Assembly (NCBI GenBank): GCA_965231875.1
Contig: CBDDOM010000002.1
Location: 2,627,942 to 2,691,941 of the forward strand
Direction: 5' to 3'
DNA length: 64,000 nucleotides
DNA from: Alphaproteobacteria bacterium
GTDB lineage: Bacteria > Pseudomonadota > Alphaproteobacteria > MPNO01
Each line of letters starts with the position of its first letter. Position 1 is the first letter of the stretch. Under the pieces are notes generated by a model. It made no database searches, was not told the origin of the DNA, and saw only the letters and a list, made by a program, of their open reading frames with translations. Shown here piece after piece: positions 24,561-64,000 of the stretch. The position numbers were made by a program, and so were the translations under genes.

Positions 24561-24561
24561 G

Positions 24562-33303: not shown

Positions 33304-33913
33304 AGCCTGTCCGACTCCGGAGAAACCGTTCCCGCCGCCATCCCGAATCCAACACGGCCGGCGGCGGCGGGGAACTGGAGGCGCTGCAAACTATCCCCGA
33401 TTTCCACAGCGGGACTAATGGCCGACGGAAGCCGCGCTGTCCTTCGCTTTGCGCGCTTCTCGCGCCGACCGAGCCGCCCGGCGGGCGACTTTTTTTCGCA
33501 ATAATTCGTCCGACCGGCCACGCCGGCGTTGCAAGTCTCTCCCGGGGCAGCTACTGTTTTGCAGTTGGGCAGCGTGGGGATGTCCTCGAAACAATAAAAA
33601 AACAGGCAAGACATTCTCTCTACTTGCGAAATCCGCGCAATACTATCGCAACACGGGACGAATACCTGACGATCGGTGTCGTTTTATTTCCTCAAAATGA
33701 GGACGGGCTAGCTTTGGGGCCAAGGTGAGCGGGTTGGAATCGCTGATACGAAACGGGCCTTGGGCCGGTCCGACGTGCATCGGATCGATGTTGGGCCGGC
33801 GGTCGCCGGCCGGTAACAAAGGCGCGGCGGCTATCGATGTGAATCGTTCGGCGAACGGTCGCGCGCTCGTCCTGTTTCCCACGAACGAATCCTGATTCCG
33901 GCGGGCGCGAAGC
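33304..33913. promoter_or_regulatory. dnaA upstream region: candidate oriC / dnaA autoregulatory region
   Basis: A 610-bp non-coding gap in an otherwise densely packed region. It has a locally AT-rich stretch (about 33585-33700: ...gaaacaataaaaaaacagg...tcgttttatttcctcaaaatgagg...). Only weak DnaA-box-like 7/9 matches, for example atttccaca at about 33405. Confidence 0.3.
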
Positions 33914-35326: not shown

Positions 35327-35527
35327 TACGGCGGTCGTTTCCGGCATCCGGGCATGCCGCGCGGAACGCGTGATACTTCCCATTGCAGCAACAGGTTCTG
35401 CTATAGTGGCTCCGGTGCGCGCGGCGCTTCGTTCGGGGCGCAATCGAGGTGCCGGACGCCACCCGCCGGTTCGGCGGAACACGCCTGATCCGGACGGAGA
35501 TTTTCCTCAAACGGGGATCCCGGGACG

Positions 35528-36646
35528 ATGAAGCTCACGATCGAACGCGGGGCATTGTTGCGGTCGCTGCAGCACGCTCAGGGCGTCATTGAGCGACGCA
35601 CGACGATACCGATCCTGTCGAACGTATTGCTCAATGCCGACGGGGCGACGCTCTCGCTGACCGCCACGGACATGGATATCGCCATCGTCGAGCGGGTGCC
35701 CTGCACGGTGGCCCAGCCGGGTGCGACGACGGTGCCCGCGCAAACCCTCTTCGACGTGGTGCGCAAGCTGCCGGAGGGCGCCGAGCTGGAGATCGCGAGC
35801 GGCGGCGAACAGAACCAGCTCGTCGTGCGCTGCGGGCGCTCGCGGATATCGCTCGCCACCCTGCCGAGCGAGGACTTCCCGGTGATGAGCGAGGGCGACC
35901 TGCCCCACGCGTTCACCGTCGACGCGAAGGCGCTGCGCGAGATCATCGACCGGACCCGCTTCGCAATGTCGTCCGAAGAGACCCGCTACTACCTCAACGG
36001 CGTCTATGTCCATCCCGCCGAGGGCGAGGAGGAGCCGAAGCTCCGGATCGTAGCCACCGACGGCCACCGACTCGCGCGGGTGGAGCTGGCGCTCCCCGAA
36101 GGAGCGGCGGGGATGCCAGGCGTAATCGTTCCGCGCAAGACGGTCGGCGAGGTCCGGAAACTTATCGACGACGGCGAGGAAGAGGTCGCGATAACCCTGT
36201 CGGACACCAAGATTCGCATCGCCGTCGAGTCGACGGTTCTGACCTCCAAGCTGATCGACGGCACGTTCCCGGACTACGACCGCGTCATCCCGTTCGCCAA
36301 CGACAAGGCGTTGCAGGTCGATCCAAGGAATTTCGCAAAGGCGGTCGACCTGGTCTCGACCATCGCGACGGAGAAAACCCGGGCGATCAAGCTCAGCCTC
36401 GACAACGGATCGCTGGTGCTGTCGGCCTCGAGTCCGGAGGCGGGCAGCGCGGAAGAGCAGCTCGAGGTCGAATACGCGGACGGACCGCTGGAGATCGGCT
36501 TCAACTCGCGCTACCTGCTCGACATCGCCCAACTCATCGGCGATGACGGTGCCAGGTTCATGCTCTCGGACGGGACCTCGCCGACGCTGGTCCGCGACAA
36601 TGCGGATCCCGGCGCGCTTTACGTCCTGATGCCGATGCGCGTTTGA
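35528..36646 (+). CDS. dnaN: DNA polymerase III beta subunit (sliding clamp)
   Basis: 372 aa. N-terminal MKLTIERGALLRSLQHAQGVIERRTTIPILSNVLL. Lies between dnaA and recF. Confidence 0.9.
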   Translation: MKLTIERGALLRSLQHAQGVIERRTTIPILSNVLLNADGATLSLTATDMDIAIVERVPCTVAQPGATTVPAQTLFDVVRKLPEGAELEIASGGEQNQLVVRCGRSRISLATLPSEDFPVMSEGDLPHAFTVDAKALREIIDRTRFAMSSEETRYYLNGVYVHPAEGEEEPKLRIVATDGHRLARVELALPEGAAGMPGVIVPRKTVGEVRKLIDDGEEEVAITLSDTKIRIAVESTVLTSKLIDGTFPDYDRVIPFANDKALQVDPRNFAKAVDLVSTIATEKTRAIKLSLDNGSLVLSASSPEAGSAEEQLEVEYADGPLEIGFNSRYLLDIAQLIGDDGARFMLSDGTSPTLVRDNADPGALYVLMPMRV

Positions 36647-36696
36647 CCCTCCGAGCGCAGGAAACCCGGGAGAACGCATACGCGGGGGCGACGGCC

Positions 36697-40833
<4,137 letters not shown>

Positions 40834-49606: not shown

Positions 49607-50545
49607 TCAAAACGCCCGGTGGATCAGCTCCTCCCCGGCGAGGAAGCGTTTCAGGTTTTCCAGCCAGATCTCGCCCACGCGCACGGTGTAGAGCGGCGTC
49701 ATGCAGGCGGCGTGGGGGGAAATGAACAGGTTGGGGATGTCCCAGAGGTCGCTGTCGGCGGGCAGGGGCTCGGTGGGCAGCACGTCGACGAAGGCCTGGG
49801 CGATGCCGCCGGTGGCGAGCGCGCCCTGGAGCGCCTCGATATCGACCAGCGCGCCGCGCCCGACATTGACCAGCGTCGCGGTGGGCTTCATCCGGGCGAG
49901 CGCCTCGGCCCCGATCATGCCGGCGGTCTCGCCGGTGTTGGGGACGGCGAGGACCACGAAATCCGCCTCCGGCAGGAACGCGGCAAGGTCGTCGAGCGTC
50001 CCCTGCCGGTCGAGCCCGGGCACCGGATCGGGCGACCGGCGGATGCCGTGCACCGTCATCCCGAACGCGCCCGCATAGGCCGCGACGCGGCTGCCGATGG
50101 CGCCGAGCCCGACGACGAGGACGGTGGACGCGCTCAGCCCGGCCTGCTTGAGCTGGTGCCACTCATGCGCGCGTTGCAGGTCGCGGAACTCAGCCAGCCG
50201 CTTCGCCCCCCACATCACGCCGGCGAAGGCGAACTCCGCGACCTCGGGCGCGTTGGCGCCGGGGCTGTGGGTGACCGCCACCCCCTTGGCCCGCATGTCG
50301 TCATAGAACCGCCCGTCGATCCCCGCATCCTCGGTATGCGCCCATCTGGGCGGGGAGATGGAGATCGCGGTGTCGACGAAGGCGTCGGTGTAGGCGTCGC
50401 CGGCGTAGATCACGACATCGGAGCCCTCGGGCGAGACGGTCCAGTTGCTCCCGCGGTCTGTCAATGCCCATTCGATGCCGGGGCAGAACGCCTCGGCTTG
50501 CGCCGCCACCTCGTCGTGGAAATCGTGCGCCGCCGCGATTTTCAT
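49607..50545 (-). CDS. D-isomer-specific 2-hydroxyacid dehydrogenase family protein
   Basis: NAD-binding VGLGAIGSRVA motif. Catalytic-domain layout. Start at MKIAAAHDF. Confidence 0.75.
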   Translation of the reverse strand: MKIAAAHDFHDEVAAQAEAFCPGIEWALTDRGSNWTVSPEGSDVVIYAGDAYTDAFVDTAISISPPRWAHTEDAGIDGRFYDDMRAKGVAVTHSPGANAPEVAEFAFAGVMWGAKRLAEFRDLQRAHEWHQLKQAGLSASTVLVVGLGAIGSRVAAYAGAFGMTVHGIRRSPDPVPGLDRQGTLDDLAAFLPEADFVVLAVPNTGETAGMIGAEALARMKPTATLVNVGRGALVDIEALQGALATGGIAQAFVDVLPTEPLPADSDLWDIPNLFISPHAACMTPLYTVRVGEIWLENLKRFLAGEELIHRAF

Positions 50546-50684
50546 GGTGATGACTCCGTCTTCCCCGACCGCAAACCGCGCGGACCGTTTGTTGGGCCCG
50601 TATTGTACCGACGACGGACGCCGGTTGCGCGGCCGGGGCACGGCCCTATACTGTGACTACATTGGTTACAAACGGGGATCGCCG

Positions 50685-50927
50685 ATGCGACAGGTCCAGC
50701 TGCGCGAGGCCAAGGCGAGGCTGTCCGCCCTGGTCGACGGGGCGGCGGAGGGGGAGGCGACGATCGTCACGCGCCACGGCAAGCCGCGGGCCGTGATCGT
50801 CGGGATCGACGAATGGAACCGCCTCAGCAACGTCCCGTCCTTCGGCCGCCTGCTGCTCGCTTCGGAACTGGAGGACGGGGACCTGCCCCCGCGCGACACC
50901 GCCCCGCCGCGCGAGGCCGGGCTATAG
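50685..50927 (+). CDS. Type II antitoxin, Phd/YefM family
   Basis: 80 aa. MRQVQLREAKARLSALVDGAAEGEATIVTRHGKPRAVIVGIDEW is the canonical Phd/YefM N-domain. Confidence 0.7.
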   Translation: MRQVQLREAKARLSALVDGAAEGEATIVTRHGKPRAVIVGIDEWNRLSNVPSFGRLLLASELEDGDLPPRDTAPPREAGL

Positions 50928-50967
50928 AACGCATCCGTTTCAGGCGGAACCGCGTCCGCTGTTTCTG

Positions 50968-51079
50968 CCCGTCATGGTCGGCGTAGGCCGACCATCCACG
51001 TTTTCTCTTTTGTTGTTCTCCATCTGCATACCGGGCGAGAAAAAAACTCGTGGATGGTCGGCCTACGCCGACCATGACG
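50968..51079. repeat. Family-A REP/BIME-like palindromic element, copy 3 (inverted orientation, longer spacer)
   Basis: Hairpins read ATGGTCGGCgtagGCCGACCAT. The spacer is the reverse complement of the copy-1/2 spacer, with an 18-bp insertion. It sits between the Phd antitoxin gene and the VapC toxin gene. Confidence 0.8.
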
Positions 51080-51138
51080 GTGGGGGTGCGCCAGCCCGAC
51101 CGGTTCCGACCGAACCGGACACGCTCTAGGACCGCGTC

Positions 51139-51576
51139 GTGTACCTGGCCGACACCGATGTTCTGTCGACCGATGCGCCCGGCCGGCGGGAACGCTCCGC
51201 GGCCCTGGTCGACTGGATGGACGCGCGGTCGGACGCCTTGTTCCTGTCCACGATCACCGTCGCCGAAATCCGGCACGGCATCGCCAAGCTGGAACGGACC
51301 GGCGCCGCAGACAGGGCGGCGCGCCTCGGCGACTGGCTCGAACTCGTGCTCCATCTCTATGGCGACCGGGTAATCCCGTTCGACATAGAAGCCGCCAACG
51401 CCGCGGGGCCGCTGATGGACAAGGCGCGCGCGACGGGCCAGTCGCCCGGCTTCGCCGACCTCGCCATCGCCGCGACGGCAGACAGCCGGAACCTGACGGT
51501 GCTAACGCGCAACCTGCGTCACTTTGAGCCGCTGGATATCCAAGCGGTAAATCCGTTCGAAGCGTCGCCGGACTAA
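51139..51576 (+). CDS. Type II toxin, VapC (PIN-domain ribonuclease)
   Basis: YLADTDVLS...STITVAEIRHGIA...DLAIAATADSRNLTVLTRNLRHF is a PIN/VapC signature with intact acidic residues. Apparent GTG start with no obvious RBS. A stop codon lies 3 codons upstream in frame. Confidence 0.7.
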   Translation: MYLADTDVLSTDAPGRRERSAALVDWMDARSDALFLSTITVAEIRHGIAKLERTGAADRAARLGDWLELVLHLYGDRVIPFDIEAANAAGPLMDKARATGQSPGFADLAIAATADSRNLTVLTRNLRHFEPLDIQAVNPFEASPD

Positions 51577-51686
51577 GCGTGGTCCCGAGAAAGGGCCTCC
51601 TCCTCACATCCTCTCCGCGTTTAATGACCCCGTTGCTGAACCAAGGCCGCCAAAGCCGTATCTGGGCATTACATTCCACTTTATCC

Positions 51687-51716
51687 TTGACATTAGTCGT
51701 TCTCTGCAGCATAAGT
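51687..51716 (+). promoter_or_regulatory. Putative sigma70-like promoter of the AT-rich island gene
   Basis: TTGACA, 18 bp, ATAAGT, about 78 nt upstream of the ATG. A strong AAAGGAGAG RBS sits before the start. Confidence 0.4.
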
Positions 51717-51793
51717 TGTCGTCTGCCTCGTGGATTCGAGGACAGATGGTCGGCAATCAAGCTGCTGGATGGCGGCATTGAAAGGAGAGATAG

Positions 51794-52990
51794 ATGCTTC
51801 GTAAGTTCAGTTTCGCGCCGGAATTTGCTCGGCGCATACCCGATCCCAACTTCAAGTCCCAGTCTAACGCCGAACGACACCTATTTGTGATGGGTGTCAA
51901 ATCGATTCCTGCTGGCATCGGCCTAGATCCGAACGCGCGTCGGCCCAACATCTCGAAGCGCGTTTATCGAAAAGTTGAGGCCAGTTTGCTACAGCAGGAC
52001 GAGAGTCCCAGAGGGACTTTTCATCTGAAGAACAAAGGCATCACGATAATCGCTTCGTCGGTCAAGCAGTCGGGAGACCGAAAATACGAAATTGCTTTGG
52101 AGTCTGGTGTCCATGGTATCGTTGACGGTGGACACACTTATGAACTCATCATAAACAATCAAGAAAATCCAGAGCTGGCGGACGACCAATATGTGAACGT
52201 TGAAGTCCGCGTTGGAATTCCAGATCAGTGGATTCCTGAAATTGCGGGCGGCCTCAATACTTCAGTGCAGGTTCACGACATGAGTTTGGACCATCTCGCT
52301 GGACGCTTTGAGTGGCTGAAGGATTTGCTCAAGAAAGAAGAGTATTACGACACGATCGCTTGGTCGGAGAACGACAAAGGTGAATATGACGCCCGCGATA
52401 TCATAAGCATGATGCTGTGTTTCAACGTTGCTCTTTTCCCCAATGTTAAAGAGGATCACCCGATCGCCGCCTACGAAAAGAAGTCGACAGCCTTGAAGTT
52501 GTTTGAAGATAACGATGGTAGCTTCAAGCGCATGAGGCCGATACTCAAGGACATTTTGCGTTTCCATGATATCGTCGGAAAACAGGGCCGTGAGCTGTAT
52601 AATAAGTTGCCGAATACAAAAGGTGGAACTCTGGCGTTTGTCGATCAGCGCAAGCGGGGAAAGTATCGATTTCAATTCATCGGTGACGAAGACGATTATC
52701 GCCTTGCTCCCGGTGCGCTGTACCCGATGATGGCTGCATTCCGCTGGTACATTGAAGAAGACCCAATGTCGGGAAACATGAAATGGCGTGGCGGGTTCGC
52801 GAGCGTGCTAACGGCTTGGAATGAACTCGGAGGCGAACTAATGCGCGCCACGATGCAAACCAGTAACGAGTTGGGCCGAAATCCTCAATCTATCGGTAAG
52901 AGCCGCAATCACTGGTCGAACCTGCATTCTCGAGTCATTAAACATGACCTGATGAGCCAGAAGCGCCCAAACGCCGGCGCTGCTGAGTAA
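51794..52990 (+). CDS. Hypothetical protein in low-GC island; AIPR-like (abortive-infection phage-resistance) candidate
   Basis: 398-aa ORF in a segment with clearly lower GC and different codon usage than its surroundings. It has its own promoter and strong RBS. N-terminal KNKGITIIA and HGIVDGGHTYELII resemble the 'NNGITI ... IVNGxQT' core I associate with the AIPR family. That is an unverified recollection. Confidence 0.45.
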   Translation: MLRKFSFAPEFARRIPDPNFKSQSNAERHLFVMGVKSIPAGIGLDPNARRPNISKRVYRKVEASLLQQDESPRGTFHLKNKGITIIASSVKQSGDRKYEIALESGVHGIVDGGHTYELIINNQENPELADDQYVNVEVRVGIPDQWIPEIAGGLNTSVQVHDMSLDHLAGRFEWLKDLLKKEEYYDTIAWSENDKGEYDARDIISMMLCFNVALFPNVKEDHPIAAYEKKSTALKLFEDNDGSFKRMRPILKDILRFHDIVGKQGRELYNKLPNTKGGTLAFVDQRKRGKYRFQFIGDEDDYRLAPGALYPMMAAFRWYIEEDPMSGNMKWRGGFASVLTAWNELGGELMRATMQTSNELGRNPQSIGKSRNHWSNLHSRVIKHDLMSQKRPNAGAAE

Positions 52991-53042: not shown

Positions 53043-53930
53043 CTACCTCTGCACCCCCGCCAGCCCTTCCAGCACCGCACACACACTCGCCGTGTCCTCC
53101 GCCACTCGCCCCTGCGCCAGGGCGGCGTTGTAGATCTGTCCCGAGGCCGCGAAGCAGGGGGCGGCGCAGCCGACCTCCGCGAGGAAGTCGCCGATGACCT
53201 TCATGTCCTTGAGCTGCATGTCGATCGACGCCGAGGCGTTGGAATAATCCCCCGCGACCATCTGCGGGCCGCGCACCTCGAAGATGCGGGAGGTGGCGGC
53301 GCTGTTGGAGATCACCTCGTAAATCGTCTCCGGGTCGAGCCCCGCCTTGATGCCGAGCGCGAAGGCCTCGCCGGTGGCGACGTTGTGGATCGCGACCAGG
53401 AGATTGGCGACGAACTTCATCCGGCTGCCGTTGCCGAATTCGCCGAGGTCGTAATGGGCGCGGGAGAACCCCTCGAACACCTCGGTCAGGGACGCGATGG
53501 CCTGGCTGTCGCCGCTCGCATAGACCACGAGATCGCCGGCCGCGGCCTGGGTGCTGGTGCCGCTGAGCGGCACGTCGAGCAGGATCTTGCCGGTCTCGGC
53601 CAGCGTCGCGCGGCCGGCTTCCTTGATCGCGATGGGGAGCGTCGAGGTGTCGAAGGCGACGAGGCCGGGCTTTTCGGCGGCGCCGATCCCGTCCGCGCCC
53701 CCGATCACGTCCTCGAACGCCGCGATGGTGGGGAGCGAGGTCATCACGCAATCCGCGGCTTCCGCCACCGCGCGCGGGCTGTCGGCCACGCTGCCGCCCA
53801 TTGCCGCAAGGGCCTCGGCGCGCGCCGGGTCGGGATCCCGCCCCACCACCTGGAATCCGGCGGCGATCAGGTTCTTCGCCATCGCCCCGCCCATCCGGCC
53901 CAGCCCCACGATTCCGACCGTCTTCGCCAT
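53043..53930 (-). CDS. NAD(P)-dependent oxidoreductase, 3-hydroxyisobutyrate/6-phosphogluconate dehydrogenase-like
   Basis: N-terminal GIVGLGRMGGAMAKNL Rossmann motif and a C-terminal 6PGDH-like helical domain. GGGAGAGGGA RBS. Confidence 0.75.
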   Translation of the reverse strand: MAKTVGIVGLGRMGGAMAKNLIAAGFQVVGRDPDPARAEALAAMGGSVADSPRAVAEAADCVMTSLPTIAAFEDVIGGADGIGAAEKPGLVAFDTSTLPIAIKEAGRATLAETGKILLDVPLSGTSTQAAAGDLVVYASGDSQAIASLTEVFEGFSRAHYDLGEFGNGSRMKFVANLLVAIHNVATGEAFALGIKAGLDPETIYEVISNSAATSRIFEVRGPQMVAGDYSNASASIDMQLKDMKVIGDFLAEVGCAAPCFAASGQIYNAALAQGRVAEDTASVCAVLEGLAGVQR

Positions 53931-54007
53931 CGTCCCTCTCCCGCGCCGCGAGGCGCCCTGTGCTATAAGAACCGCCGCGCAACATAGCGGCTCGGGGAAG
54001 GCGGGGC

Positions 54008-56347
54008 ATGGCAAATCAGGGGGTGGGCGCGTCGATCGCGCGCAAGGAGGACGACCGCCTGATGCGCGGCCGCGGCCGTTTCGTGGGCGATTTCGGCCTC
54101 GCCGGCCAGCTCGAGGCGGCCTTCGTCCGGAGCCCCGTCGCGCATGCCCTGATCGGGGGGATCGACATCCCGGACGACATCCGTTCGCGCGTCTTCACCC
54201 ATGCCGACATGAAAGGCGTCAGGCCGATCCGCGCGGTCTCCGCCCTGCCGGGGTTCAAGCCCTCGTCCCAGCCGGCGCTGGCGTCGGAAAAGGTGCGCCA
54301 GGTGGGCGAGACGATCGCGATCTGCGTCGCCGACACCCGCGCCGAGGCCGAGGACATGGCCGACCGCGTCGCGGTCGATTTCGAGATCCTGCCGGCGATC
54401 TCCGACATGCTGACCGCCCGCGATCCGGACGCGCCGCTGATCCATGAGTCATGGGGCGACAACGTCTTCCTGGAGACCGATGTCGACGACGACATCGAGG
54501 CGGTCGCCGCCCGCGCCGCGGTCAAGGTGACGCGCGAGGTCCGCACCGCGCGGCAGTGCATGGCGCCGATCGAGGGCAAGGGGGTGCTCGCCGAGTGGGA
54601 TCCGAGGCTCCGCCAGCTCACCGTGACCTCGGCGGCCCAGCTCCCCCATATCGTCCGCAACGGGCTCGCCGAATGTCTCGGCATGGACCTCGCCAGCGTC
54701 CGGGTGATCGCGCCCGATGTCGGCGGCGGTTTCGGCTACAAGGGGATCCTCGCGCCGGAGGAGGTCTGCATCGCCTGGCTCGCCAGACGCCTGGAACGCC
54801 CGGTGCGCTGGCTGGAGGACCGGCGCGAGCACCTGACCGCCAACGCCAATTGCCGCGAGCACCACTACGTCGTCACCGGCTATGCCGACGCGGAGGGAAG
54901 GCTGCTCGGGCTGGAGGCGGAGGCGACGGTCGATGCCGGCGCCTATTCGGCCTACCCGTTCTCGGCCTGTCTCGAAGCCGCCCAGGTCGCCTCGATCCTG
55001 CCCGGGCCCTACCTCATGGACGCGTTCCGCTGCCGCACCTGGTCGATCGCCTCCAACAAGCCGCCGATCCTGCCCTTCCGCGGGGTGGCGCGGCCCGGCG
55101 TCTGCTTCGCGCTGGAACTCGTGATCGACGCCATCGCCCGCGAGGTCGGGCGCGAGCCGCACGAGGTCCGGCTGGACAACCTGGTGAAGCCCGAGCAGAT
55201 GCCGTTCGACAACATCACCGCCAAGCATTACGACAGCGGCGACTATCCGGAGAGCATCCGCCGCGCGGCCGAGGCGATCGACGTCGCCGGGGTCCGAGCG
55301 CGGCAGGCGCGCGGCGAGCCGGACGGGCGGCGCGTCGGGGTCGGGTTCTCGATCTTCTGCGAACAGGCCGGGCACGGGACGGCGGTCTATTCCGGCTGGG
55401 GGATCCCGATGATCCCGGGCTTCGAGCAGGCCGGCGCGCGGCTTACGCCGGACGGCGCGCTGGAACTCCGCGTCGGGGTCCACAGCCACGGCCAGGGGCT
55501 GGAGACCAGCCTCGCCCAGGTGGCGCACGAGGTGCTCGGCATCGACACCGACGACGTGCGGGTGGTGCTGGGCGATACCGCCTACACCCCCTACTCGACC
55601 GGGACGTGGGGATCGCGCTGCATGATCATGGCGGGTGGCGCGACGGCGGAGGCCTGCAGGCTGCTTGCCGAACGGATCCGCCAGATCGGCGCCGGGCTGC
55701 TGCAGGTCGATCCCGCCTCGGTGCGGCTGGAGGACGGAAGGGTGGCCGGCCCGTCCGGCAGCGTGACACTGCAGGAGGTCGGGCGCACCTGGTACCTGCG
55801 CCCGCAGGACCTGACCGCCGACGTCGACCGGCAGGGGCTGGAGGTCATCGGCGGCTACAAGCCCGAGCGCGATTCCGGCACCTTCAGCTATGCCTGCCAC
55901 GCCGCATTCGTCGCCGTCGACACCGCGACCGGCGAGGTCGAGATCCTGGATTACGTCGTGGTCGAGGACGGCGGGGTGCTGGTCAACCCGATGATCGTCG
56001 ACGGCCAGGTCTATGGCGGCACCGGGCAGGGCATCGGCACCGCGCTCTACGAGGAGATGCCCTACGCGGAGGACGGCCAGCCGCTCGCGCCCACGCTGGC
56101 CGACTACCTCTTGCCGGGGCCGACCGAGATCCCCTCGATCCGGGTCGACCACATGGAGACCCCCTCGCCCTACACCACCTTCGGGCAGAAGGGGATCGGC
56201 GAGGGCGGGGCTATCGGCCCGCCGGCGGCGATCGGCAACGCGATCAACGACGCGCTTGCGCCGCTCGGGGTCGAGGTCTCCGAGTGCCCGATCACGCCGC
56301 GCCGGCTGCTCGCCGCCATCGCCGCGGCGGGAGACGCCGGCAGGTGA
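54008..56347 (+). CDS. Xanthine dehydrogenase-family molybdopterin-binding subunit (CoxL/aldehyde-oxidase-like, stand-alone large subunit)
   Basis: 779 aa. N-terminal IARKEDDRLMRGRGRFVGD, with the Mo-cofactor binding domains following the family pattern. Confidence 0.8.
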   Translation: MANQGVGASIARKEDDRLMRGRGRFVGDFGLAGQLEAAFVRSPVAHALIGGIDIPDDIRSRVFTHADMKGVRPIRAVSALPGFKPSSQPALASEKVRQVGETIAICVADTRAEAEDMADRVAVDFEILPAISDMLTARDPDAPLIHESWGDNVFLETDVDDDIEAVAARAAVKVTREVRTARQCMAPIEGKGVLAEWDPRLRQLTVTSAAQLPHIVRNGLAECLGMDLASVRVIAPDVGGGFGYKGILAPEEVCIAWLARRLERPVRWLEDRREHLTANANCREHHYVVTGYADAEGRLLGLEAEATVDAGAYSAYPFSACLEAAQVASILPGPYLMDAFRCRTWSIASNKPPILPFRGVARPGVCFALELVIDAIAREVGREPHEVRLDNLVKPEQMPFDNITAKHYDSGDYPESIRRAAEAIDVAGVRARQARGEPDGRRVGVGFSIFCEQAGHGTAVYSGWGIPMIPGFEQAGARLTPDGALELRVGVHSHGQGLETSLAQVAHEVLGIDTDDVRVVLGDTAYTPYSTGTWGSRCMIMAGGATAEACRLLAERIRQIGAGLLQVDPASVRLEDGRVAGPSGSVTLQEVGRTWYLRPQDLTADVDRQGLEVIGGYKPERDSGTFSYACHAAFVAVDTATGEVEILDYVVVEDGGVLVNPMIVDGQVYGGTGQGIGTALYEEMPYAEDGQPLAPTLADYLLPGPTEIPSIRVDHMETPSPYTTFGQKGIGEGGAIGPPAAIGNAINDALAPLGVEVSECPITPRRLLAAIAAAGDAGR

Positions 56348-57303
56348 CCGCTCCGCCCTGTTCCGGCGTGGAGACCGGGCGGGAGCCCGCCGGGTTCGTC
56401 CTGCCCGAGCCCTCCGCGATCCTCGACCTCGTCATGGACGACGGCGCGCCGATCCGCGTCCTGCGCCACGGCAACCGGTCCGGCCCGCGCGTCGTGCTGA
56501 GCCACGGCAACGGCTTCGCGAGCGACACCTATTTCCCGTTCTGGCGGTCGATGCTGGAGCGCTTCGACCTCGCCCTGTTCGATTTCCGCAATTGCGGGCG
56601 CAACCCGTTCCACGCGGCGAAGCCGTTCGACTATCCGCGTTTCGCGCGGGACGGCGCGGCGGTGCACGGCGCCATCGCGGACGCGTGGGGCGCGAAGACC
56701 ACGATCGGCGTCTTCCATTCGATGTCGGCGACGACGGCGCTGTGCGAGGTCGTCGAGGGCATCTGGCACTGGGACGCGCTGGTACTGTTCGACCCGCCGG
56801 TGATGCCGCCGGAAGGCAACCCGCTGCGCGCCCGATTGATGGCCGAGGGCGAGGCGCTGCGCGACGCCGCCCTGATCCGCAAGAACCGGTTCCCCGACTC
56901 CGACGAGCTGGCCGACGTGTTCCGGTACCTGCACCGGTTCCGGCGTCTGCGCAAGGGGGTGGCGGAACTGATCGCGGGCTCGACGCTGCGCTTCGATGCC
57001 GCCTCTGGCGAGTGGCTGCTCTGCTGCCCGGGCCCGGTGGAGGCCGGACTCTATATCGAGGTCGGCAAGCTGCCCCTCTGGCGAAAGGCCGGCCCGCCGG
57101 CGCGCCCGCTGCTGATCGTGGGCGCCGACCCGGAGCCCGACGACGCGCCCCGGACCGCGCGCTGTTGCGAGGCGTTCTGCGGAACCTTCGGCATCGACTA
57201 TGCCTTCGTGCCCGATACCAGCCACCTCCTGCAGCTCGAAGAGCCGGAGCAATGTTTCGCCCTGCTGGAGGGTTTCCTCGCCGAAAACGGGATCGCCGCA
57301 TGA
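56344..57303 (+). CDS. Alpha/beta hydrolase, paralog 1 (non-canonical HS-x-SA nucleophile elbow)
   Basis: HGNGFASDTYFPFW ... GVFHSMSATTA. Apparent GTG start overlapping the upstream stop as GTGA. About 45% identical to the next gene. Confidence 0.6.
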   Translation: MTAPPCSGVETGREPAGFVLPEPSAILDLVMDDGAPIRVLRHGNRSGPRVVLSHGNGFASDTYFPFWRSMLERFDLALFDFRNCGRNPFHAAKPFDYPRFARDGAAVHGAIADAWGAKTTIGVFHSMSATTALCEVVEGIWHWDALVLFDPPVMPPEGNPLRARLMAEGEALRDAALIRKNRFPDSDELADVFRYLHRFRRLRKGVAELIAGSTLRFDAASGEWLLCCPGPVEAGLYIEVGKLPLWRKAGPPARPLLIVGADPEPDDAPRTARCCEAFCGTFGIDYAFVPDTSHLLQLEEPEQCFALLEGFLAENGIAA

Positions 57304-58226
57304 ACGCACCGCCGGATATCTTCCGTGTCCCCCAGCCGATCGAGAGCTTCGACGCCGAGATGGAGGACGGCGCCGTCATCCGCGTCCGCCGCCACGGCAA
57401 CCCGGACGGGCCCAGGCTGACGATGGCGCACGGCAACGGCTTCGCCATCGACGCCTATTACCCGTTCTGGCGGCTGCTGACCGACCGCTACGACCTCGCG
57501 ATCTACGACCAGCGCAACCACGGCCAGAACCCGCGCCACGACGCGGAGCGCCACGACGTTCCCGCCTTCGTCGCCGACATGGACCGGCTGATCGACCTCA
57601 TCTCCGAGCGTTTCGGCCCCAAGCCGACGGTCGGCGTGTTCCATTCGATCTCGGCGGTCACCGCGATCCGGCATGCGCTGGAGCATGGCTGGCGCTGGGA
57701 CGCGCTGGCGCTGTTCGACCCGCCGCTGATCCCCTCGCCCGGCCACCAGGCGCACGAGGTCGCGCGGACGTTCGAGCTGGGCCTCGCGGACTGGGCGGCG
57801 GCGCGGCCGGACCGTTTCTCGACCGCGATGGATCTCGCCGCCCGCTTCGCCCGGTCGAAGAGCCTCGCGCGCTGGGTGGAAGGCGGGCATGCCCTGATGG
57901 CGCGCTCGATCGTCCGCGAGGACCCGGAGACCGGGGAGTTCGTGCTGTGCTGCCCGCGCGAGGGGGAATCACGGGTCTACCGCACCAATGCCGGGATGGA
58001 CCTCTGCCCGCGCCTCGGCGAGCTCAAGGGACCGCTGGTCTTCATCTCGTCCGACCCCGACGCGCCGGGCGCGCTGGCTCCCGGCAAGGTCGGCCGCGCG
58101 ATGCAGGAAGACCACGGCATCGCGTGGACCCCGATCGAAAACACCAGCCACCTGCTCCAGATCGAACGCCCCGACGCCTGTCACACGGCGCTGGAAGCGT
58201 TCCTGGCGCGGCAGTCCCTGGGCTAG
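57300..58226 (+). CDS. Alpha/beta hydrolase, paralog 2 (non-canonical HS-x-SA nucleophile elbow)
   Basis: HGNGFAIDAYYPFW ... GVFHSISAVTA. The start overlaps the paralog-1 stop as ATGA. Confidence 0.65.
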   Translation: MNAPPDIFRVPQPIESFDAEMEDGAVIRVRRHGNPDGPRLTMAHGNGFAIDAYYPFWRLLTDRYDLAIYDQRNHGQNPRHDAERHDVPAFVADMDRLIDLISERFGPKPTVGVFHSISAVTAIRHALEHGWRWDALALFDPPLIPSPGHQAHEVARTFELGLADWAAARPDRFSTAMDLAARFARSKSLARWVEGGHALMARSIVREDPETGEFVLCCPREGESRVYRTNAGMDLCPRLGELKGPLVFISSDPDAPGALAPGKVGRAMQEDHGIAWTPIENTSHLLQIERPDACHTALEAFLARQSLG

Positions 58227-58267
58227 AGACTGTCCGATTCACTTGGAGCCGCCGCGCGAGCGGGGCG

Positions 58268-58370
58268 CCCTTCGATACGCGGCTTCGCCGCTACTCAGGG
58301 TGAGGGATGGGCTGTCGACGGCCAAAAAGTCTCCTCATCCCGAGTAGGCGCGAAGCGCCGTATCGAGGGA
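58268..58370. repeat. Family-B long imperfect palindrome, copy 2
   Basis: cccttcgatacgcggcttcgccgctactcagggtgaggg...cctcatcccgagtaggcgcgaagcgccgtatcgaggga. The arms are nearly identical to copy 1 and the spacer is different. It lies about 40 nt after the hydrolase stop. Confidence 0.75.
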
Positions 58371-58453
58371 CGCCACGTCGGCACGGTTCCATCCAACACG
58401 GATAGACCCCTGAGCGCCCCCGGAGATCCGAAAATAGTCCCGTTTCGGGACAA

Positions 58454-58469
58454 TGTTTCACGTGAAACA
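58454..58469. other. parS site 1 (perfect match to canonical ParB-binding centromere sequence)
   Basis: TGTTTCACGTGAAACA is a perfect 16-bp palindrome, identical to the canonical parS consensus TGTTNCACGTGAAACA. Confidence 0.75.
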
Positions 58470-58490
58470 ATGGTCAACAATGCTGACCTA

Positions 58491-58506
58491 TGTTTCACGT
58501 GAAACA
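58491..58506. other. parS site 2 (perfect match), 21 bp from site 1
   Basis: A second exact TGTTTCACGTGAAACA. The 21-bp gap between the sites holds the small palindrome GGTCA-acaatgc-TGACC. Confidence 0.75.
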
Positions 58507-58528
58507 TTAGGCGCGGTTCCCGGCGGCG

Positions 58529-59620
58529 TCAGCGGCCCTCGACCCGCATGTCCTCGGGCACGATGCGGCCGCTGTCGACGATGGTCTCGTTGTCGAGGGT
58601 GAGCGAACAGCCCTTGAGCGGGATGTCGATATGGCACAGCGTGTCGTTGTCGCCGCCGACCTCGGTATTGGGGCCGGTCGAGAACAGGACGTTGCCGTAG
58701 AAGGCGCGTCCGTCCTGGCCGGTGGAGTCCGCCGCCGCCGGGTCGGTGCCCATGAAGTCCCAGCGCGCCCTCGGATCGAGCCCCCAGCCGATATGCGAGA
58801 CCGCGTAGGCGCGCGGATCGTCGTAGCTCGCCATGAAGCTCCGCAACAGCTCGGCATCAAGTCCGGGGCCGGCGATGTCGGTGATCATGCCGCTTTCGAC
58901 GGTGAGCGTGATCGGGTCGGTGACGTAGCGCATCGACGGCAGCAGCAGCTGGTCGCCGGTGTCGATAACCACCTTTCCGTCGACGCCGTCCTCCACCGCC
59001 GCGGTGTACAGGAACACGCCCGGCCAGTGGTCCCAGCGGCCCGGCTCATCGGTGTAGCCGTACTGCTCGCCGATCCGGTAGCCGCCGAAACGGTAGGTGA
59101 CGTCGGTGCCGCCGGGCGAGGTGATGCGCATCTCCTTCGCCTTCGCCAGCCTGGCCGATGCGGCCTCGATGCGGCGCCGGTCGCCGGGGTTCGACACCAT
59201 CCGCTTGAGCACGTCGATCGGCTCGATGATCAGCAGCATGCGCGGCCCGGCATCGGTGATCTCGGTCTGCTCCTTCGACCAGAGCAGCCCGACCAGGTCG
59301 ACCACCATGTCGACGCTCTTGAGCGCCGCCTTCGCGGGCTCGTTGCCCTGCAGCGAATTGCCCGGCCCGAAGAAGCTGCCCGGCTTCTTCCTGATATTGA
59401 CCTGGAACGCATCCGCTTCGAGCTCGGCCGCGGCGGCGAGACACGCCGTCGCGTGCTCGGTCCGCACGTCGTCTTCCGAGAGCACGGCGACGCTGGTCCC
59501 CTGGCCCACGTCGCAAAGATCGAGCTGCTTCCTGAACAACGCGACTGTTTCGGCATCCGCAACCATCGTTCCCTCCGCCTTTTGCCGCCCGTCCCGGGCG
59601 CGTTGTGAAAACGCTATCAC
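58529..59620 (-). CDS. M29-peptidase-fold protein, 2,5-dihydroxypyridine dioxygenase (NicX)-like / aminopeptidase-T-like
   Basis: 363 aa. HIGWGLDP and a C-terminal CHIDIPL...TLDNETIVDSGRI match the His/His-x-Asp metal-site pattern of the M29/NicX family. Recalled, not searched. Confidence 0.5.
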   Translation of the reverse strand: MIAFSQRARDGRQKAEGTMVADAETVALFRKQLDLCDVGQGTSVAVLSEDDVRTEHATACLAAAAELEADAFQVNIRKKPGSFFGPGNSLQGNEPAKAALKSVDMVVDLVGLLWSKEQTEITDAGPRMLLIIEPIDVLKRMVSNPGDRRRIEAASARLAKAKEMRITSPGGTDVTYRFGGYRIGEQYGYTDEPGRWDHWPGVFLYTAAVEDGVDGKVVIDTGDQLLLPSMRYVTDPITLTVESGMITDIAGPGLDAELLRSFMASYDDPRAYAVSHIGWGLDPRARWDFMGTDPAAADSTGQDGRAFYGNVLFSTGPNTEVGGDNDTLCHIDIPLKGCSLTLDNETIVDSGRIVPEDMRVEGR

Positions 59621-59651
59621 CCGCCGTTCGAGGCGGCAAGAAAAGCGGGCG

Positions 59652-60122
59652 TCAGACCGGCTTTGCGAGCAGGGTCGGGATCGAGAAGGTGTCGAGCACG
59701 ACGACCCGCTCGACCAATTTGAGCGCGCCGCCGAAGCGCCCCATCGTGTCGCGGTAGCAGCCGACCGCGAACAGGCGCGACACGCCGTCTACGTCGGTCT
59801 GGTAGAGCGCGTAGTTCGTCTCGACCTCGATCCGGTCGTCCCGGTCGGCGACGATGCGGGGCGGACCGGCGATATGCCGCGTGGTGTGCGGGTTGAAGGT
59901 GTTGGCCCTGAGCAGCGAGACGATCCGGTCGCTCAGCGCCTTCTTGGTCTCGCACAGCATGACGCTGCCGGGCAGGCCCTGCTGGACGTTCTCCAGCGGC
60001 ACGATTCGGTAGGCGCACTCGTCGTGGAAGAGGTCGAGCCAGGCCTGCCAGTCCTCGTTGTCGAGCGCTGCGGAGGACTCGGCGATCAGGGCTTCGACAC
60101 GCGCCCGGAGCCCGGTGTCCAC
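59652..60122 (-). CDS. Aromatic ring-hydroxylating dioxygenase beta (small) subunit
   Basis: 156 aa, NTF2-like. WQAWLDLFHDECAYRIV...NYALYQTD is the typical beta-subunit pattern. It follows the alpha subunit after 3 nt. Confidence 0.7.
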   Translation of the reverse strand: MDTGLRARVEALIAESSAALDNEDWQAWLDLFHDECAYRIVPLENVQQGLPGSVMLCETKKALSDRIVSLLRANTFNPHTTRHIAGPPRIVADRDDRIEVETNYALYQTDVDGVSRLFAVGCYRDTMGRFGGALKLVERVVVLDTFSIPTLLAKPV

Positions 60123-60125
60123 GCG

Positions 60126-61382
60126 TCAGCCCCCGCCCGGGTCGAGGCCCATGATGTCGCAGTAATAGGACCAGAAACCGCGGATCATCACGTCGTCGAG
60201 CTTTTCGTCGCCGTCCCGGATGGGCCCGCGCCCGCCCATCTCGACCACCGACGCATCGCTCCCGCCCGCGCGGTGGCCGGACTGGCAGGATTCGAGGGCC
60301 TCGGCGTCCTCCAGCGAGACATAGCCGGCGGGGCCGGCCATGTTGGCCTGCCGGAGCCGGTGCGCGGTCATCTCCTCGCTGTCGTCCTGGTAGCCGAAGA
60401 TCGTGAAGACGAGGTCGAACGCGCCCGGGCCCCTGGGCCGGATCTGGCGCGCCGCGAGCGCGTTCCGGATCTGCTGGAAGGTGCTGTTGGGAAAGATCGA
60501 GCACATCGTGGTCGACCGGTCGTCCTCGAACTCGCGCTCGAAGCGGAGCAAGGCCGGGTCCTGGAGCGCCAGCCTCGCCCCGTCGGCCGCCTCGGCGAGG
60601 GGGCGCAGACGCGCGGCGCTATCGATGCCCGGCGCGGGAGCGTTCTCGTATTCCTCGCGCGGCTGGCGGACGAAGAGGAGGCTGTGCCGGCCTTCCGGAT
60701 CCATCCGCGAGCCGCAGTCGTGGGTCGAGCGGTTGATCCCGAAGGTGCTCTGGAATCCGTGCAGGAGCGCGCCGTGATAGTGGTCGCGGACGTTCTCCAG
60801 ATAGGCCTTCCAGTTGCTGCGCACCGCCTGGCGCTGGTAGCCGAGAACCCGGACCGGCGCCCGGAACAGGCGTTCCAGATGGGCGACATGCGTCGGGCCG
60901 AGATAGTCGCGCAGCGGCTCGACGGTCTCGGAGAAGGTCGCGAACAGGGCGCCGTTCACGCGGTCCACGCGGAGCTTCCTGAGCCCGTGGCAGGCCATGT
61001 CGAAGTCGTCCGGCATGCCCGGGCTGCCGCCGACGCCATGGCGGTGGGGAACCGCGACCAGATCGCCCGCGAGGTCGTAGGTCCAGCTGTGATAGAGGCA
61101 GACATGGGCGGAGACGTTGCCGAAATTCTCGCGCTGGATCAGCGCGCCCCGATGCGAGCAGCGGTTGACGAAAGCGTGGACCCGCCCGTCCCCGGCACGG
61201 TTGTAGACGACCGGCGCCTCGCCGACGAAAGTCCGGCGGAAATCGCCCGGCTCCGGGACTTCGGCTTCGAGCCCGAGGAACGACCAGGTCTCCCCCTCGA
61301 AGATGCGCTCGATCTCCAGCCGGTAGAGCGCCTCGTCGTGATACCAAGCGTAGGGGATGCGATCGAAACCGGAACGATCCAT
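60126..61382 (-). CDS. Aromatic ring-hydroxylating dioxygenase alpha subunit (Rieske 2Fe-2S)
   Basis: CSHRGALIQ...CLYHSWTY Rieske CxH-x17-CxxH motif. About 418 aa with a C-terminal catalytic domain. Confidence 0.8.
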   Translation of the reverse strand: MDRSGFDRIPYAWYHDEALYRLEIERIFEGETWSFLGLEAEVPEPGDFRRTFVGEAPVVYNRAGDGRVHAFVNRCSHRGALIQRENFGNVSAHVCLYHSWTYDLAGDLVAVPHRHGVGGSPGMPDDFDMACHGLRKLRVDRVNGALFATFSETVEPLRDYLGPTHVAHLERLFRAPVRVLGYQRQAVRSNWKAYLENVRDHYHGALLHGFQSTFGINRSTHDCGSRMDPEGRHSLLFVRQPREEYENAPAPGIDSAARLRPLAEAADGARLALQDPALLRFEREFEDDRSTTMCSIFPNSTFQQIRNALAARQIRPRGPGAFDLVFTIFGYQDDSEEMTAHRLRQANMAGPAGYVSLEDAEALESCQSGHRAGGSDASVVEMGGRGPIRDGDEKLDDVMIRGFWSYYCDIMGLDPGGG

Positions 61383-61457
61383 CGTCGGCCCCCTTCTTGC
61401 TCCCTGAGTTTCGACTCTATCGGTTCCAGGGGGAACGCGCCAAGCGCGGGGTGCCGC

Positions 61458-62255
61458 TCAGAGGCACTCCGCGATTGCGTCCTCGGTGAGCACCTCGATC
61501 AGATGCGCGCGGTAGGCGGCGGTGCCATGGAGGTCGTCGGTCAGACCGTCTGGCGGCACCGACAGTCCCGCGAGCGAATCGGGGTGGAACGAGCGTTCGA
61601 GCGCGCGCTCGAACGCCTCCACCCGGAACACGCAGGAACCCGCCCCGGTGACCGCGACCCTGACACCGCCGTCGGCGAAGCGGGCGAGGAAGACCCCGAC
61701 GATGGAGAACCGCGACGCCGGGTTGGGAAATTTCCGGTAGCTCGCGGCGGTGGGGACCGGGAAGCGCACCTCGACGATCAGCTCGCCGGGTGCCAGCGCG
61801 GTCTCGAACATCCCGAGGAAAAAGTCCCCGGCCGGGATTGGGCGCTTTGTCGTGACGATCTCCGCGCCGAGCGCGAGCACCGCCGAGGGGTAGCAGGCGG
61901 CGGGGTCGTTGTTGGCGAGCGAGCCGCCGACGGTCCCCCGGTTGCGCACCAGCGGATCGCCGATCCCGCCGGCCAGCGCGGCGATGGCGGGGATGGCCCT
62001 CTTCACCGTCCCGGACGCCGCCACCGCCGCGTGCGGCGTCATCGCCCGGATTACGAGCACGCCGGGTTCGGCGGAGACGCCCACAAGTTCGCCGAGCCCC
62101 GCGAGGTCCACGAGGTCGGACGGCGACGCCAGACGATGCTTCATCACCGGGATCAGGCTCATCCCGCCGGCCAGCGGGCGTCCGTCTTCCCCGGAGACAA
62201 GCAGCTGTTCGGCGTCGGCGATCGTGCCCGGCCGGTGGTAGCGGTAGGGGTACAT
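61458..62255 (-). CDS. Xanthine-dehydrogenase-family FAD-binding subunit (CoxM/XdhB-like)
   Basis: 265 aa. MYPYRYHRPGTIADAEQLL...AGGMSLIPVMK...GTVGGSLANNDPAACYP FAD-binding-5 motifs. Confidence 0.75.
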   Translation of the reverse strand: MYPYRYHRPGTIADAEQLLVSGEDGRPLAGGMSLIPVMKHRLASPSDLVDLAGLGELVGVSAEPGVLVIRAMTPHAAVAASGTVKRAIPAIAALAGGIGDPLVRNRGTVGGSLANNDPAACYPSAVLALGAEIVTTKRPIPAGDFFLGMFETALAPGELIVEVRFPVPTAASYRKFPNPASRFSIVGVFLARFADGGVRVAVTGAGSCVFRVEAFERALERSFHPDSLAGLSVPPDGLTDDLHGTAAYRAHLIEVLTEDAIAECL

Positions 62256-62725
62256 CAGACCTCCGCCATCGCCGCCGCGCCGGCAAGAATCGCCGCGACG
62301 ATATTCTGGTAGCCCGTGCAGCGGCAGAGATTGCCTTCCAGACCCGCCCGGACCGAGTCCGCGTCCGTCGCGCCGCCGCGCCGGATCATGTCGAGCGCGC
62401 TCATGATCATGCCGGGCGTGCAGAACCCGCATTGCAGCGCGTGGTGCTCCTTGAAAGCGGCTTGCAGCGGGTTGAGCCCGTCCGCCGGCGAGACCCCTTC
62501 GATGGTGGTCACCGCTTGCCCCTCGGCCTGGGCGGCGAAGACGGTGCAGGACTTCACCGCGATCCCGTCGAGATGGACGGTGCAGGCGCCGCACTGGCTG
62601 GTATCGCACCCGACATGGGTGCCGGTGAGCCCAGCCTGGCGGCGGATGAACTCGACCAGCAGCATTCTCGGGTCGATTTCCGCCCGGCGCTCGCGGCCGT
62701 TGATGTCGAGCGCGACGGGGATCAT
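62255..62725 (-). CDS. Xanthine-dehydrogenase-family (2Fe-2S)-binding subunit (CoxS-like)
   Basis: CGACTVHLDG, then CGFCTPG and CRCTGY, are two [2Fe-2S] Cys clusters. Start at MIPVALDINGRE, overlapping the upstream stop as ATGA. Confidence 0.8.
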   Translation of the reverse strand: MIPVALDINGRERRAEIDPRMLLVEFIRRQAGLTGTHVGCDTSQCGACTVHLDGIAVKSCTVFAAQAEGQAVTTIEGVSPADGLNPLQAAFKEHHALQCGFCTPGMIMSALDMIRRGGATDADSVRAGLEGNLCRCTGYQNIVAAILAGAAAMAEV

Positions 62726-64000
62726 CCGGCCCGGGCCTCCTCGATCGCCCGCCACACGGCGTCGGGCGTGTAGGGCTGACGCACATGGCGGACGCCGAGA
62801 TCCCAGAGCGCATCGACGATCGCGTTGCCGATCGCCGCCGGAGCCCCGATGGTGCCGGTCTCGCTGCCGCCCTTGACGCCGAGCGGGTTGGACGGCGCCG
62901 GCGTCTCCTGGAAGGTCATGCCGACATCCGGCATGTCGGAGGCGCGCGGCAGCGCGTAGTCCATCAGGGTGCCGGAGAAGAGCTGCCCCGCGCCGCCGCC
63001 GTCATAGACCACGCGTTCCATCAGCGCCTGGCCGAGCCCCTGGGCGAGCCCGCCGACGACCTGTCCCTCGACGATCAGCGGGTTGATTATCTTGCCGCAA
63101 TCGTCGGCCGTGAAGTAGTCGCGCACCGTCGCCTTGCCGGAGCGGGGTTCCACGAGGACCACCGCGAGATGCATCGCCTGCGGGTCGTTGGTGTCGGGCG
63201 GCTCATAGAAGACGGTTTCCTCCAGCCCCGGCTCCATCGACCCGTCGGCCGGCAGCACCGCGCCGTGATAGGCGGCGTCGGCCACGTCCTCGAAGCTGAG
63301 TTCGCGGTCGGTGCCGCGCACCGAAAAGACCGAATTCCCGTAGACCAGGTCTTCCTCGGCGCATTCGAGCATGTGGGAGGCCAGGCGCCTAGCCTTGTCG
63401 ATCACCCTGTCGGCCGCCTTCATGATCGCGATACCGCCGACCGAGAGCGAGCGCGACCCCCAGGTGCCGTTGCCGAACGGCACGCTCCCGGTATCGCCCT
63501 CGACCAGCGCGATGTCCTCGATGGGCAAGCCGAGACGGTCGGCGGCGATCTGGCAAAACGTGGTGTCGTGGCCTTGGCCGTGGCTGTGCGAGCCGACGAA
63601 GACGGTCGCCTTGCCGTCCGAATGGACGCGCACGATGGCGCTCTCGTAGCCGCCGTGAAGGCCGCCGCGGCTGGCCAGGTTACGGCTCGATCCGGTGCCC
63701 GACTTGTCGAGGAAGCAGGCGATGCCGATTCCCATCCGCACACCGTCTTCACGGAGCCGCTTCTGCTCCGCGCGCAGGGCGTCGTAATCGGCAATCTTCA
63801 GCAGCTTGTCGAACAGCGCCGGCGGATCGCCGCAATCGTAGGGGCGCCCGACCGGGGTCGTGTAGGGGAAGGCCTCCGCCGGGATCAGGTTGCGGCGGCG
63901 GATCTCGGTCACGTCGATGCCGAGCTCGCGCGCGCCGTTCTCCAGCAGCCGCTCGTTGACGAAGGTCGCCTCGGGCCGGCCGGAGCCGCGATAGGCGTCG
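62722..64000 (-). CDS. Xanthine-dehydrogenase-family molybdopterin-binding subunit (CoxL-like). 3' part only; the 5' end lies beyond the window edge.
   Basis: The C-terminal half of a Mo-binding large subunit (GIGIACFL...GSHSHGQGHDTTFCQIAA...). The reading frame stays open to position 64000. Confidence 0.75.
   Translation of the reverse strand, partial: DAYRGSGRPEATFVNERLLENGARELGIDVTEIRRRNLIPAEAFPYTTPVGRPYDCGDPPALFDKLLKIADYDALRAEQKRLREDGVRMGIGIACFLDKSGTGSSRNLASRGGLHGGYESAIVRVHSDGKATVFVGSHSHGQGHDTTFCQIAADRLGLPIEDIALVEGDTGSVPFGNGTWGSRSLSVGGIAIMKAADRVIDKARRLASHMLECAEEDLVYGNSVFSVRGTDRELSFEDVADAAYHGAVLPADGSMEPGLEETVFYEPPDTNDPQAMHLAVVLVEPRSGKATVRDYFTADDCGKIINPLIVEGQVVGGLAQGLGQALMERVVYDGGGAGQLFSGTLMDYALPRASDMPDVGMTFQETPAPSNPLGVKGGSETGTIGAPAAIGNAIVDALWDLGVRHVRQPYTPDAVWRAIEEARAG

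Follow-up and report, generated by a model that had tools for sequence, protein, structure and literature searches.

Why should two perfect copies of a centromere-type palindrome lie between the 3' ends of two convergent operons, in a stretch of chromosome that carries no partition genes? The window, i.e. the whole 64-kb stretch of DNA analysed here, has a G+C content of 68.0% (0.680), and within it a 16-bp palindrome of only 37.5% G+C, TGTTTCACGTGAAACA, occurs twice and exactly, at 58454-58469 and 58491-58506, with a start-to-start distance of 37 bp. Both copies fall within the 302 bp that separate the convergent gene ends at 58226 (plus strand) and 58529 (minus strand), and the pair is 23.1 kb from the end and 24.5 kb from the start of dnaA. 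The features at and around it are:

58454 to 58469, unstranded: parS site 1, an exact palindrome TGTTTCACGTGAAACA, equal to the consensus in PMC7022226.
58470 to 58490, unstranded: the 21-bp spacer ATGGTCAACAATGCTGACCTA, with the arms GGTCA (58472-58476) and TGACC (58484-58488) around a 7-nt centre.
58491 to 58506, unstranded: parS site 2, again an exact palindrome TGTTTCACGTGAAACA.
57300 to 58226, plus strand: an alpha/beta-hydrolase gene (Pfam Abhydrolase_6, Hydrolase_4), the 3' end of which faces the cassette.
58529 to 59569, minus strand: a NicX-type 2,5-dihydroxypyridine 5,6-dioxygenase gene (PDB 7CN3, E = 8e-82), with 58529 to 59620 as the extent of its 363-aa ORF.
33042 to 33304: rpsT.
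33914 to 40294, plus strand: dnaA-dnaN-recF-gyrB (Pfam), the only origin marker in the window.
33914 to 35326, plus strand: dnaA (Pfam).

The initial annotation had described two perfect parS-type 16-mers, 21 bp apart, in the non-coding gap between 58226 and 58529, had equated them with the ParB-binding parS consensus and had judged a chance origin of the pair to be very unlikely. The sites and their position are confirmed by the sequence and by a pattern search, and the match to the consensus TGTTNCACGTGAAACA (PMC7022226, in which ParABS systems are reviewed) is exact. With up to three mismatches allowed, no further match to TGTTTCACGTGAAACA was found in the 64-kb window beyond the two; dinucleotide-preserving shuffles gave a mean of 0.02 such matches, and two or more in none of 100 shuffles. 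On base composition only, the chance of an exact TGTTTCACGTGAAACA is about 1e-6 per window (0.16^10 x 0.34^6 x 64,000). Half-sites (GTTTCAC) number six in the window against 3.2 expected, four of the six lying inside the two parS sites, and no extra half-site zones were found there. Near-palindromic symmetry extends to the spacer (GGTCAAC-AAT-GCTGACC), and across 58452-58508 two 28-nt arms are 89% complementary.

Partition genes were looked for in two ways. Pfam searches of the ORFs and tblastn with the ParA, ParB and MnmG of a relative both found no parA, parB or mnmG in the window, and about 50 further window ORFs scanned with Pfam included no ParA or ParB; the absence of parAB that had been noted before thus stands, and the cognate ParB is known from relatives only. 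Equally borne out is the earlier placement of rpsT-dnaA-dnaN-recF-gyrB near 33-40 kb, by Pfam for dnaA-dnaN-recF-gyrB and with rpsT at 33042-33304. The conclusion previously drawn from this gene order, that the window is origin-proximal, stands in its dnaA linkage and not in more than that. No DnaA-box cluster was found in the window with TTATCCACA (at most one mismatch), TTWTNCACA or TGATCCNCA, and nothing of the kind lies between rpsT and dnaA. GC skew, which had been proposed as a check, has a broad cumulative minimum near 23 kb and then climbs to about 53 kb; this is compatible with a strand switch inside the window but is weakly informative and not decisive. With no DnaA-box cluster and such a skew, origin proximity has the dnaA linkage as its single line of evidence and is only weakly shown.

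The distances in relatives bear on how far such linkage can be trusted. In three relatives dnaA and parAB are 149, 516 and 873 kb apart, with dnaA and parB separated by 516 kb on a 1.93-Mb contig and by 873 kb on a 1.97-Mb contig. On the latter (L137), three stretches with a total of 55.5 kb were analysed and contained no parS other than the pair 873 kb from dnaA; linkage to dnaA is therefore an unreliable proxy for the centromere zone in this lineage. As to the DNA upstream of dnaA in the window, its most A+T-rich non-coding stretch (33581-33700) is found there, covered by a block (33505-33737) that is kept in relatives (83% over 233 nt against L127, 78% over 88 nt against L007) and contains no consensus DnaA boxes; this block could represent the promoter of dnaA or else an origin element of unusual type.

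The window DnaA is 90% identical to a DnaA named Defluviicoccus sp., which places the window in a Defluviicoccus-like lineage. To set the pair in a wider frame, two perfect parS sites 5-35 bp apart were sought in one genome per species. Closely spaced perfect pairs are common and widespread, with at least 120 loci in many phyla, and have no universal spacing: among the matches listed the spacers are 6-35 bp long, the commonest being 23, 30 and 21 bp, with the 23-bp class inflated by many Collinsella genomes. Among these same matches, a spacer of the form GGTCA-N7-TGACC was found only in L007, an alphaproteobacterial complete chromosome (OY763326.1, 5.68 Mb), and in L010, a metagenome-assembled Defluviicoccus genome, both from the Defluviicoccus-like lineage. 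A metagenome scan with the cassette pattern added 4 more contigs, and further loci were obtained from homologues of ParB, DnaA and NicX. Outside the lineage, the survey also contained parS arrays of fixed period, i.e. a 46-bp-period array of at least six sites in L081 (1014-1337), parS in 44-bp units in L106 (2905-2992) and, in Collinsella (e.g. L021, L026, L037), triplets 39 bp apart that are kept across species; such arrays may be more widespread than their description so far would suggest.

Comparison within the lineage gives the pair a more definite form than the initial annotation had recognised: it is a cassette peculiar to the lineage, its spacer is conserved, and it was apparently gained at this junction. 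The lineage unit is 37 bp long and consists of the 16-bp site and a 21-bp spacer, WWGGTCA-N7-TGACCWW, with the consensus WWGGTCAACAATGCTGACCTW. All of more than 25 lineage sites are perfect 16-mers, and every adjacent pair is exactly 37 bp apart from start to start; L130 has three consecutive sites, for which Tandem Repeats Finder gives a period of 37 and 2.5 units. L122 has the 53-bp core of the window unchanged, and in L133/L134 and at 8 other loci both sites are perfect amid diverging flanks, so that conservation of parS in relatives exceeds that of the surrounding non-coding DNA.

The spacer is more strongly conserved in its arms than in its centre: among 9 independent lineage spacers, 2 of 90 arm positions (GGTCA/TGACC) and 10 of 63 positions of the 7-nt centre deviate (Fisher p = 0.004). 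Both arm changes lack a compensating change in the opposite arm, which gives no evidence of selection for pairing. The exact motif GGTCA-N7-TGACC was not found without flanking parS in 196 kb of lineage DNA, nor elsewhere in the window, and since the motif has no copy outside the cassette in either set, an independent regulator with spacer-motif targets of its own was rejected. With respect to the outer flank, the spacer is not oriented alike at all loci (GGTCAAC...GCTGACC versus GGTCAGC...GTTGACC; compared at 58470-58490 in the window, 2760-2780 in L007 and 6609-6629 in L125). Both orientations would be expected if recombination between the two flanking palindromes inverts the spacer, and this variation suggests spacer inversion via recombination between the two palindromic parS.

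Outside the sites themselves, two flanking elements recur:

58417 to 58453, minus strand: a conserved flank, a degenerate copy of GTCCCCGGGGGAC-NCG-AAAATAGTCCCGTTTCGGGACAA, identified by alignment and blastn.
58507 to 58511, unstranded: the outer TTAGG flank, which recurs on the unflanked side, giving CCTAA-parS...parS-TTAGG.

The longer of the two, a flank of about 40 bp (GTCCCCGGGGGAC...AAAATAGTCCCGTTTCGGGACAA), is common to 5 independent loci including the window. It is missing from the mnmG and purK/COQ9 copies and is therefore not needed to define the cassette. A possible origin of this left flank as a copy of the region downstream of rpsT was dropped, the similarity extending over only 17 nt (E = 0.26). 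Both the conserved spacer and the flank are unexplained by ParB recognition of a 16-bp site.

A link between the cassette and chromosome partitioning comes from its position in relatives. In four assemblies, a cassette with the same spacer and at least two sites lies 26-57 bp upstream of mnmG-rsmG-parA-parB:

L121/L123, metagenome contigs: two sites upstream of mnmG.
L125, OY763326.1: two sites upstream of mnmG.
L130, a 1.93-Mb contig: three sites upstream of mnmG.
L137, a 1.97-Mb contig: two sites upstream of mnmG.

The ParB encoded beside the cassette in these relatives is canonical, with ParB_N, HTH_ParB and ParB_C domains. In L137, the most distant of the parAB-linked genomes, spacer-like DNA is found on both outer sides of the pair. 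L121/L123, L125 and L130 each have one extra perfect parS about 2 kb downstream of the cassette. This extra site is single, has no spacer and lies at the mnmG-rsmG boundary (L125 8610-8625; L130 8592-8607; L121 6108-6123), inside rsmG (gidB) as called in L125 and between mnmG and rsmG in L130, in sequence that is conserved across the three relatives. OY763326.1 has one cassette at mnmG-parAB and another, 149 kb away, about 0.4 kb upstream of dnaA, and across relatives the neighbours of the cassette include dnaA, mnmG, polA, purK and a tsaB-like gene. The mnmG-parAB position is the most widely shared, on which ground we suggest that the array just upstream of mnmG-rsmG-parA-parB is probably ancestral. 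The earlier proposal that the window pair represents parS sites away from parAB is supported by the consensus match, by the presence of the same cassette by mnmG-parAB in relatives, by the perfect copies kept amid diverging DNA and by the lack of parA, parB and mnmG in the window.

How the cassette came to the NicX/hydrolase junction can be followed by comparing relatives in which the same two genes converge:

L122, 94% DNA identity to the window: cassette present at the NicX/hydrolase junction, 53-bp core identical.
L133/L134, NicX 87% identical: cassette present at the NicX/hydrolase junction.
L132, NicX 88% identical: junction without cassette, 9-bp gap.
L135, NicX 80% identical: junction without cassette, 21-bp gap.

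The gene order of L132 and L135 is that of the window. The NicX gene of the L135 genome is 18 kb from dnaA, much as in the window, and no parS was found within 10 kb of dnaA in that genome. Two more convergent junctions, polA/DUF1192 and purK/COQ9, hold the cassette in L127 and are a 9-bp gap and a 4-bp overlap, respectively, in L136. Filled and empty junctions with the same gene order thus make the cassette look gained by insertion at convergent gene ends. Insertion at tight convergent gene ends is the simplest reading of these alignments and is fairly well supported by them; neither a target-site duplication nor defined ends beyond parS were found at the compared junctions. L127 also has a 79-nt repeat (91% identity, with a 38-nt core at 100%) in three gaps around dnaA (551-629, 7595-7672 and 9410-9447), and two of these three gaps hold the parS cassette as well, which indicates that such gaps accumulate small repeats.

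A second small element occupies the same gap in the window:

58252 to 58386, unstranded: a MITE-like inverted-repeat element with 54-nt arms, 76% complementary, separate from the cassette.

A second copy of this element (24561-24652, 97.5% identical) lies in another convergent intergenic gap. The element at 58252-58386 is absent from the 94%-identical L122 and is therefore a recent insertion beside the parS cassette.

The genes around the pair belong to a pyridine-ring (nitrogen-heterocycle) degradation cluster at 53043-63912, which contains the NicX-type dioxygenase, an AndAc-like Rieske dioxygenase with its beta subunit, two molybdenum hydroxylase sets and two alpha/beta hydrolases; a relative with an 83%-identical DnaA has this cluster in synteny, at a distance of about 18 kb from dnaA. 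The 363-aa NicX-type ORF had no match in the Pfam release used or in NCBIfam, and homologues of the protein carry PF26233 NicX. Between the core genes and this cluster, an islet of low G+C content (50445-52990; 0.55 against 0.68 for the window) encodes a Phd/YefM antitoxin, a PIN-domain toxin and an AIPR (abortive-infection) protein, and probably represents a small module for defence or addiction that was acquired. A search for RNA families with Rfam at gathering thresholds gave tRNA-Ala only.

Combining the motif, the lineage comparison and the link to parAB, we suggest that the two 16-mers are very probably chromosomal parS sites organised in a fixed 37-bp unit, two-unit copies of which would have been inserted at convergent junctions including that of the NicX and hydrolase genes. 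Three other explanations have to be weighed against this one.

The first takes the palindromic block for a bidirectional terminator, or a hairpin that stabilises 3' ends, for the convergent NicX/hydrolase operons, with the parS match incidental. The block does sit between convergent gene ends, and a transcript of the NicX-type gene, on the minus strand, would run into the cassette. There are three terminator-like matches against 0.5 expected, one of them, on the minus strand, being GTCCCGAAACGGGAC followed by TATTTTCGG; on this strand, 58451-58437 in the conserved flank is a 6-bp hairpin with TATTTTCGG after it. The minus-strand RNA is predicted to fold with -67 kcal/mol (z = -10), and the single-stranded DNA to form a 25-bp hairpin of -24.1 kcal/mol (z = -8.7). 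However, structure alone would tolerate compensatory changes, whereas all of the more than 25 copies keep parS exactly and the two arm changes in the spacers are uncompensated. Moreover, at mnmG and dnaA the cassette is found upstream of the gene, on its promoter side, a position in which a terminator would be pointless; the flank hairpin is not kept in L007/L126 or L127, and the relatives that have the same convergent genes without the cassette make do with gaps of 9-21 bp. We therefore regard this explanation as very unlikely; the stable folds and terminator-like matches nevertheless allow a secondary role of the block for the minus-strand operon.

Alternatively, the cassette could be a selfish mobile repeat of the MITE or REP type, with parS-like palindromes, that spreads without benefit to the host. 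Filled and empty sites at three convergent junctions would fit such an element, as would the additional conserved flank of about 40 bp at 5 loci and the collection of other small repeats by the same gaps (the 58252-58386 element in the window and the 79-nt repeat in three gaps of L127). It lacks, however, a target-site duplication and defined ends beyond parS, it is present in only one copy in the 64-kb window and in 1-4 copies in the analysed stretches of the relatives' genomes, and its most widely shared and probably oldest position adjoins parAB, as that of a functional centromere should. Spread without host benefit is on these grounds highly improbable. Mobility as such may account for the origin of the cassette and is compatible with ParB binding, so that the selfish-repeat explanation concerns the origin of the cassette more than it offers a true rival to its identity as parS.

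Finally, that the palindromes are operators of another dimeric DNA-binding regulator, e.g. of the pyridine-ring degradation genes, could be argued from their perfect symmetry and from the second palindrome, GGTCA-N7-TGACC, between them inside a catabolic cluster, but is extremely unlikely given that both operons have the sites at their 3' ends, with no sigma-70-like promoter found in 57900-58900, that the cassette stands beside unrelated genes in relatives (those named above, from dnaA to the tsaB-like gene) and that homologous catabolic clusters (L132, L135) are without it.

The interpretation as chromosomal parS invites comparison with known systems. Chromosomal parS sites as described for Bacillus subtilis (the Spo0J sites), Caulobacter crescentus (a cluster) and Hyphomonas neptunium (two sites) resemble those analysed here in that the window 16-mer equals both the consensus TGTTNCACGTGAAACA and the H. 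neptunium sites (PMC7022226), and in that several sites per chromosome are clustered and linked to dnaA and parAB. Caulobacter has 7 parS sites and tolerates new sites near existing ones (PMC5815017). The lineage differs from these cases by its fixed 37-bp unit with a conserved spacer and by the presence of two-unit cassettes at several junctions. In the literature searched, coverage of which was incomplete, chromosomal parS was not found described with a conserved spacer or as spreading cassette by cassette.

A closer formal parallel is sopC of the F plasmid, which is built of 12 direct 43-bp repeats, and in which SopB binds a 16-bp inverted repeat within each unit (PMC3177203). In both cases a 16-bp palindromic site of the ParB family is embedded in a direct repeat of fixed length, here with a period of 37 bp and with two units in the window and up to three in a relative. 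In contrast to sopC, the cassette is chromosomal (in a dnaA-dnaN-recF-gyrB context), has no par genes in the window and carries the chromosomal parS motif rather than the SopB motif; its arrays are very short and its copies dispersed, whereas sopC is one array beside the partition genes. The parS arrays of other phyla (Collinsella, L081, L106 and Streptomyces pairs) share perfect sites 6-35 bp apart, and their spacers likewise repeat, within the L081 and L106 arrays and across Collinsella assemblies, but their spacer lengths and sequences are unlike those of the lineage cassette.

ParB dimers recognise the parS palindrome through helix-turn-helix domains, and parS-bound ParB binds CTP, closes into a clamp and slides to neighbouring DNA. 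The resulting partition complex is moved by ParA and loads SMC. If the window pair is used in this manner, a ParB dimer would load at each of the two palindromes and slide outwards, and the two adjacent sites would double the loading points at the locus. The 37-bp spacing corresponds to about 3.5 helical turns and would thus place two bound dimers on opposite faces of the helix. Occupancy of the pair by ParB, the loading of clamps there and any influence on segregation are inferred here from what is known of ParABS systems in general, including CTP-dependent clamp loading (PMC8494293). With respect to history, we suggest a scheme in which (i) the array upstream of mnmG-rsmG-parA-parB came first, (ii) two-unit copies were later inserted at tight convergent junctions elsewhere and (iii) the NicX/hydrolase junction, about 24 kb from dnaA, would be one such place of insertion.

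A bolder reading gives the whole 37-bp unit a function: it would be a composite centromere module in which the strictly conserved spacer arms (GGTCA/TGACC) and the invariant 37-bp spacing are read by a second factor or by a second surface of ParB, and the lineage would enlarge its centromere zone by the insertion of complete two-site cassettes at convergent junctions. The P1 parS, with its box A and box B organisation, offers a comparison for such a module. We consider this reading unlikely as a whole; of its parts, the insertion of cassettes is fairly well supported and the function of the spacer conjectural.

The parS pair itself is ordinary in kind; what is modestly curious about it is that the spacer is conserved and that the cassette has spread. 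Taken alone, the pair marks a probable ParB loading place in an uncultured Defluviicoccus-like bacterium and matters little. If the composite reading were true, the module and its insertion as a cassette would constitute a natural example of the expansion of a bacterial centromere region, and how such regions expand is posed as an open question in PMC5815017, on which the filled and empty sites bear. Whether the loading of ParB depends on spacing and on the sequence of the spacer could be studied in the cassette as a simple case, and the comparison of filled with empty sites at three convergent junctions gives direct evidence of how additional parS sites are gained near genes of replication and segregation.
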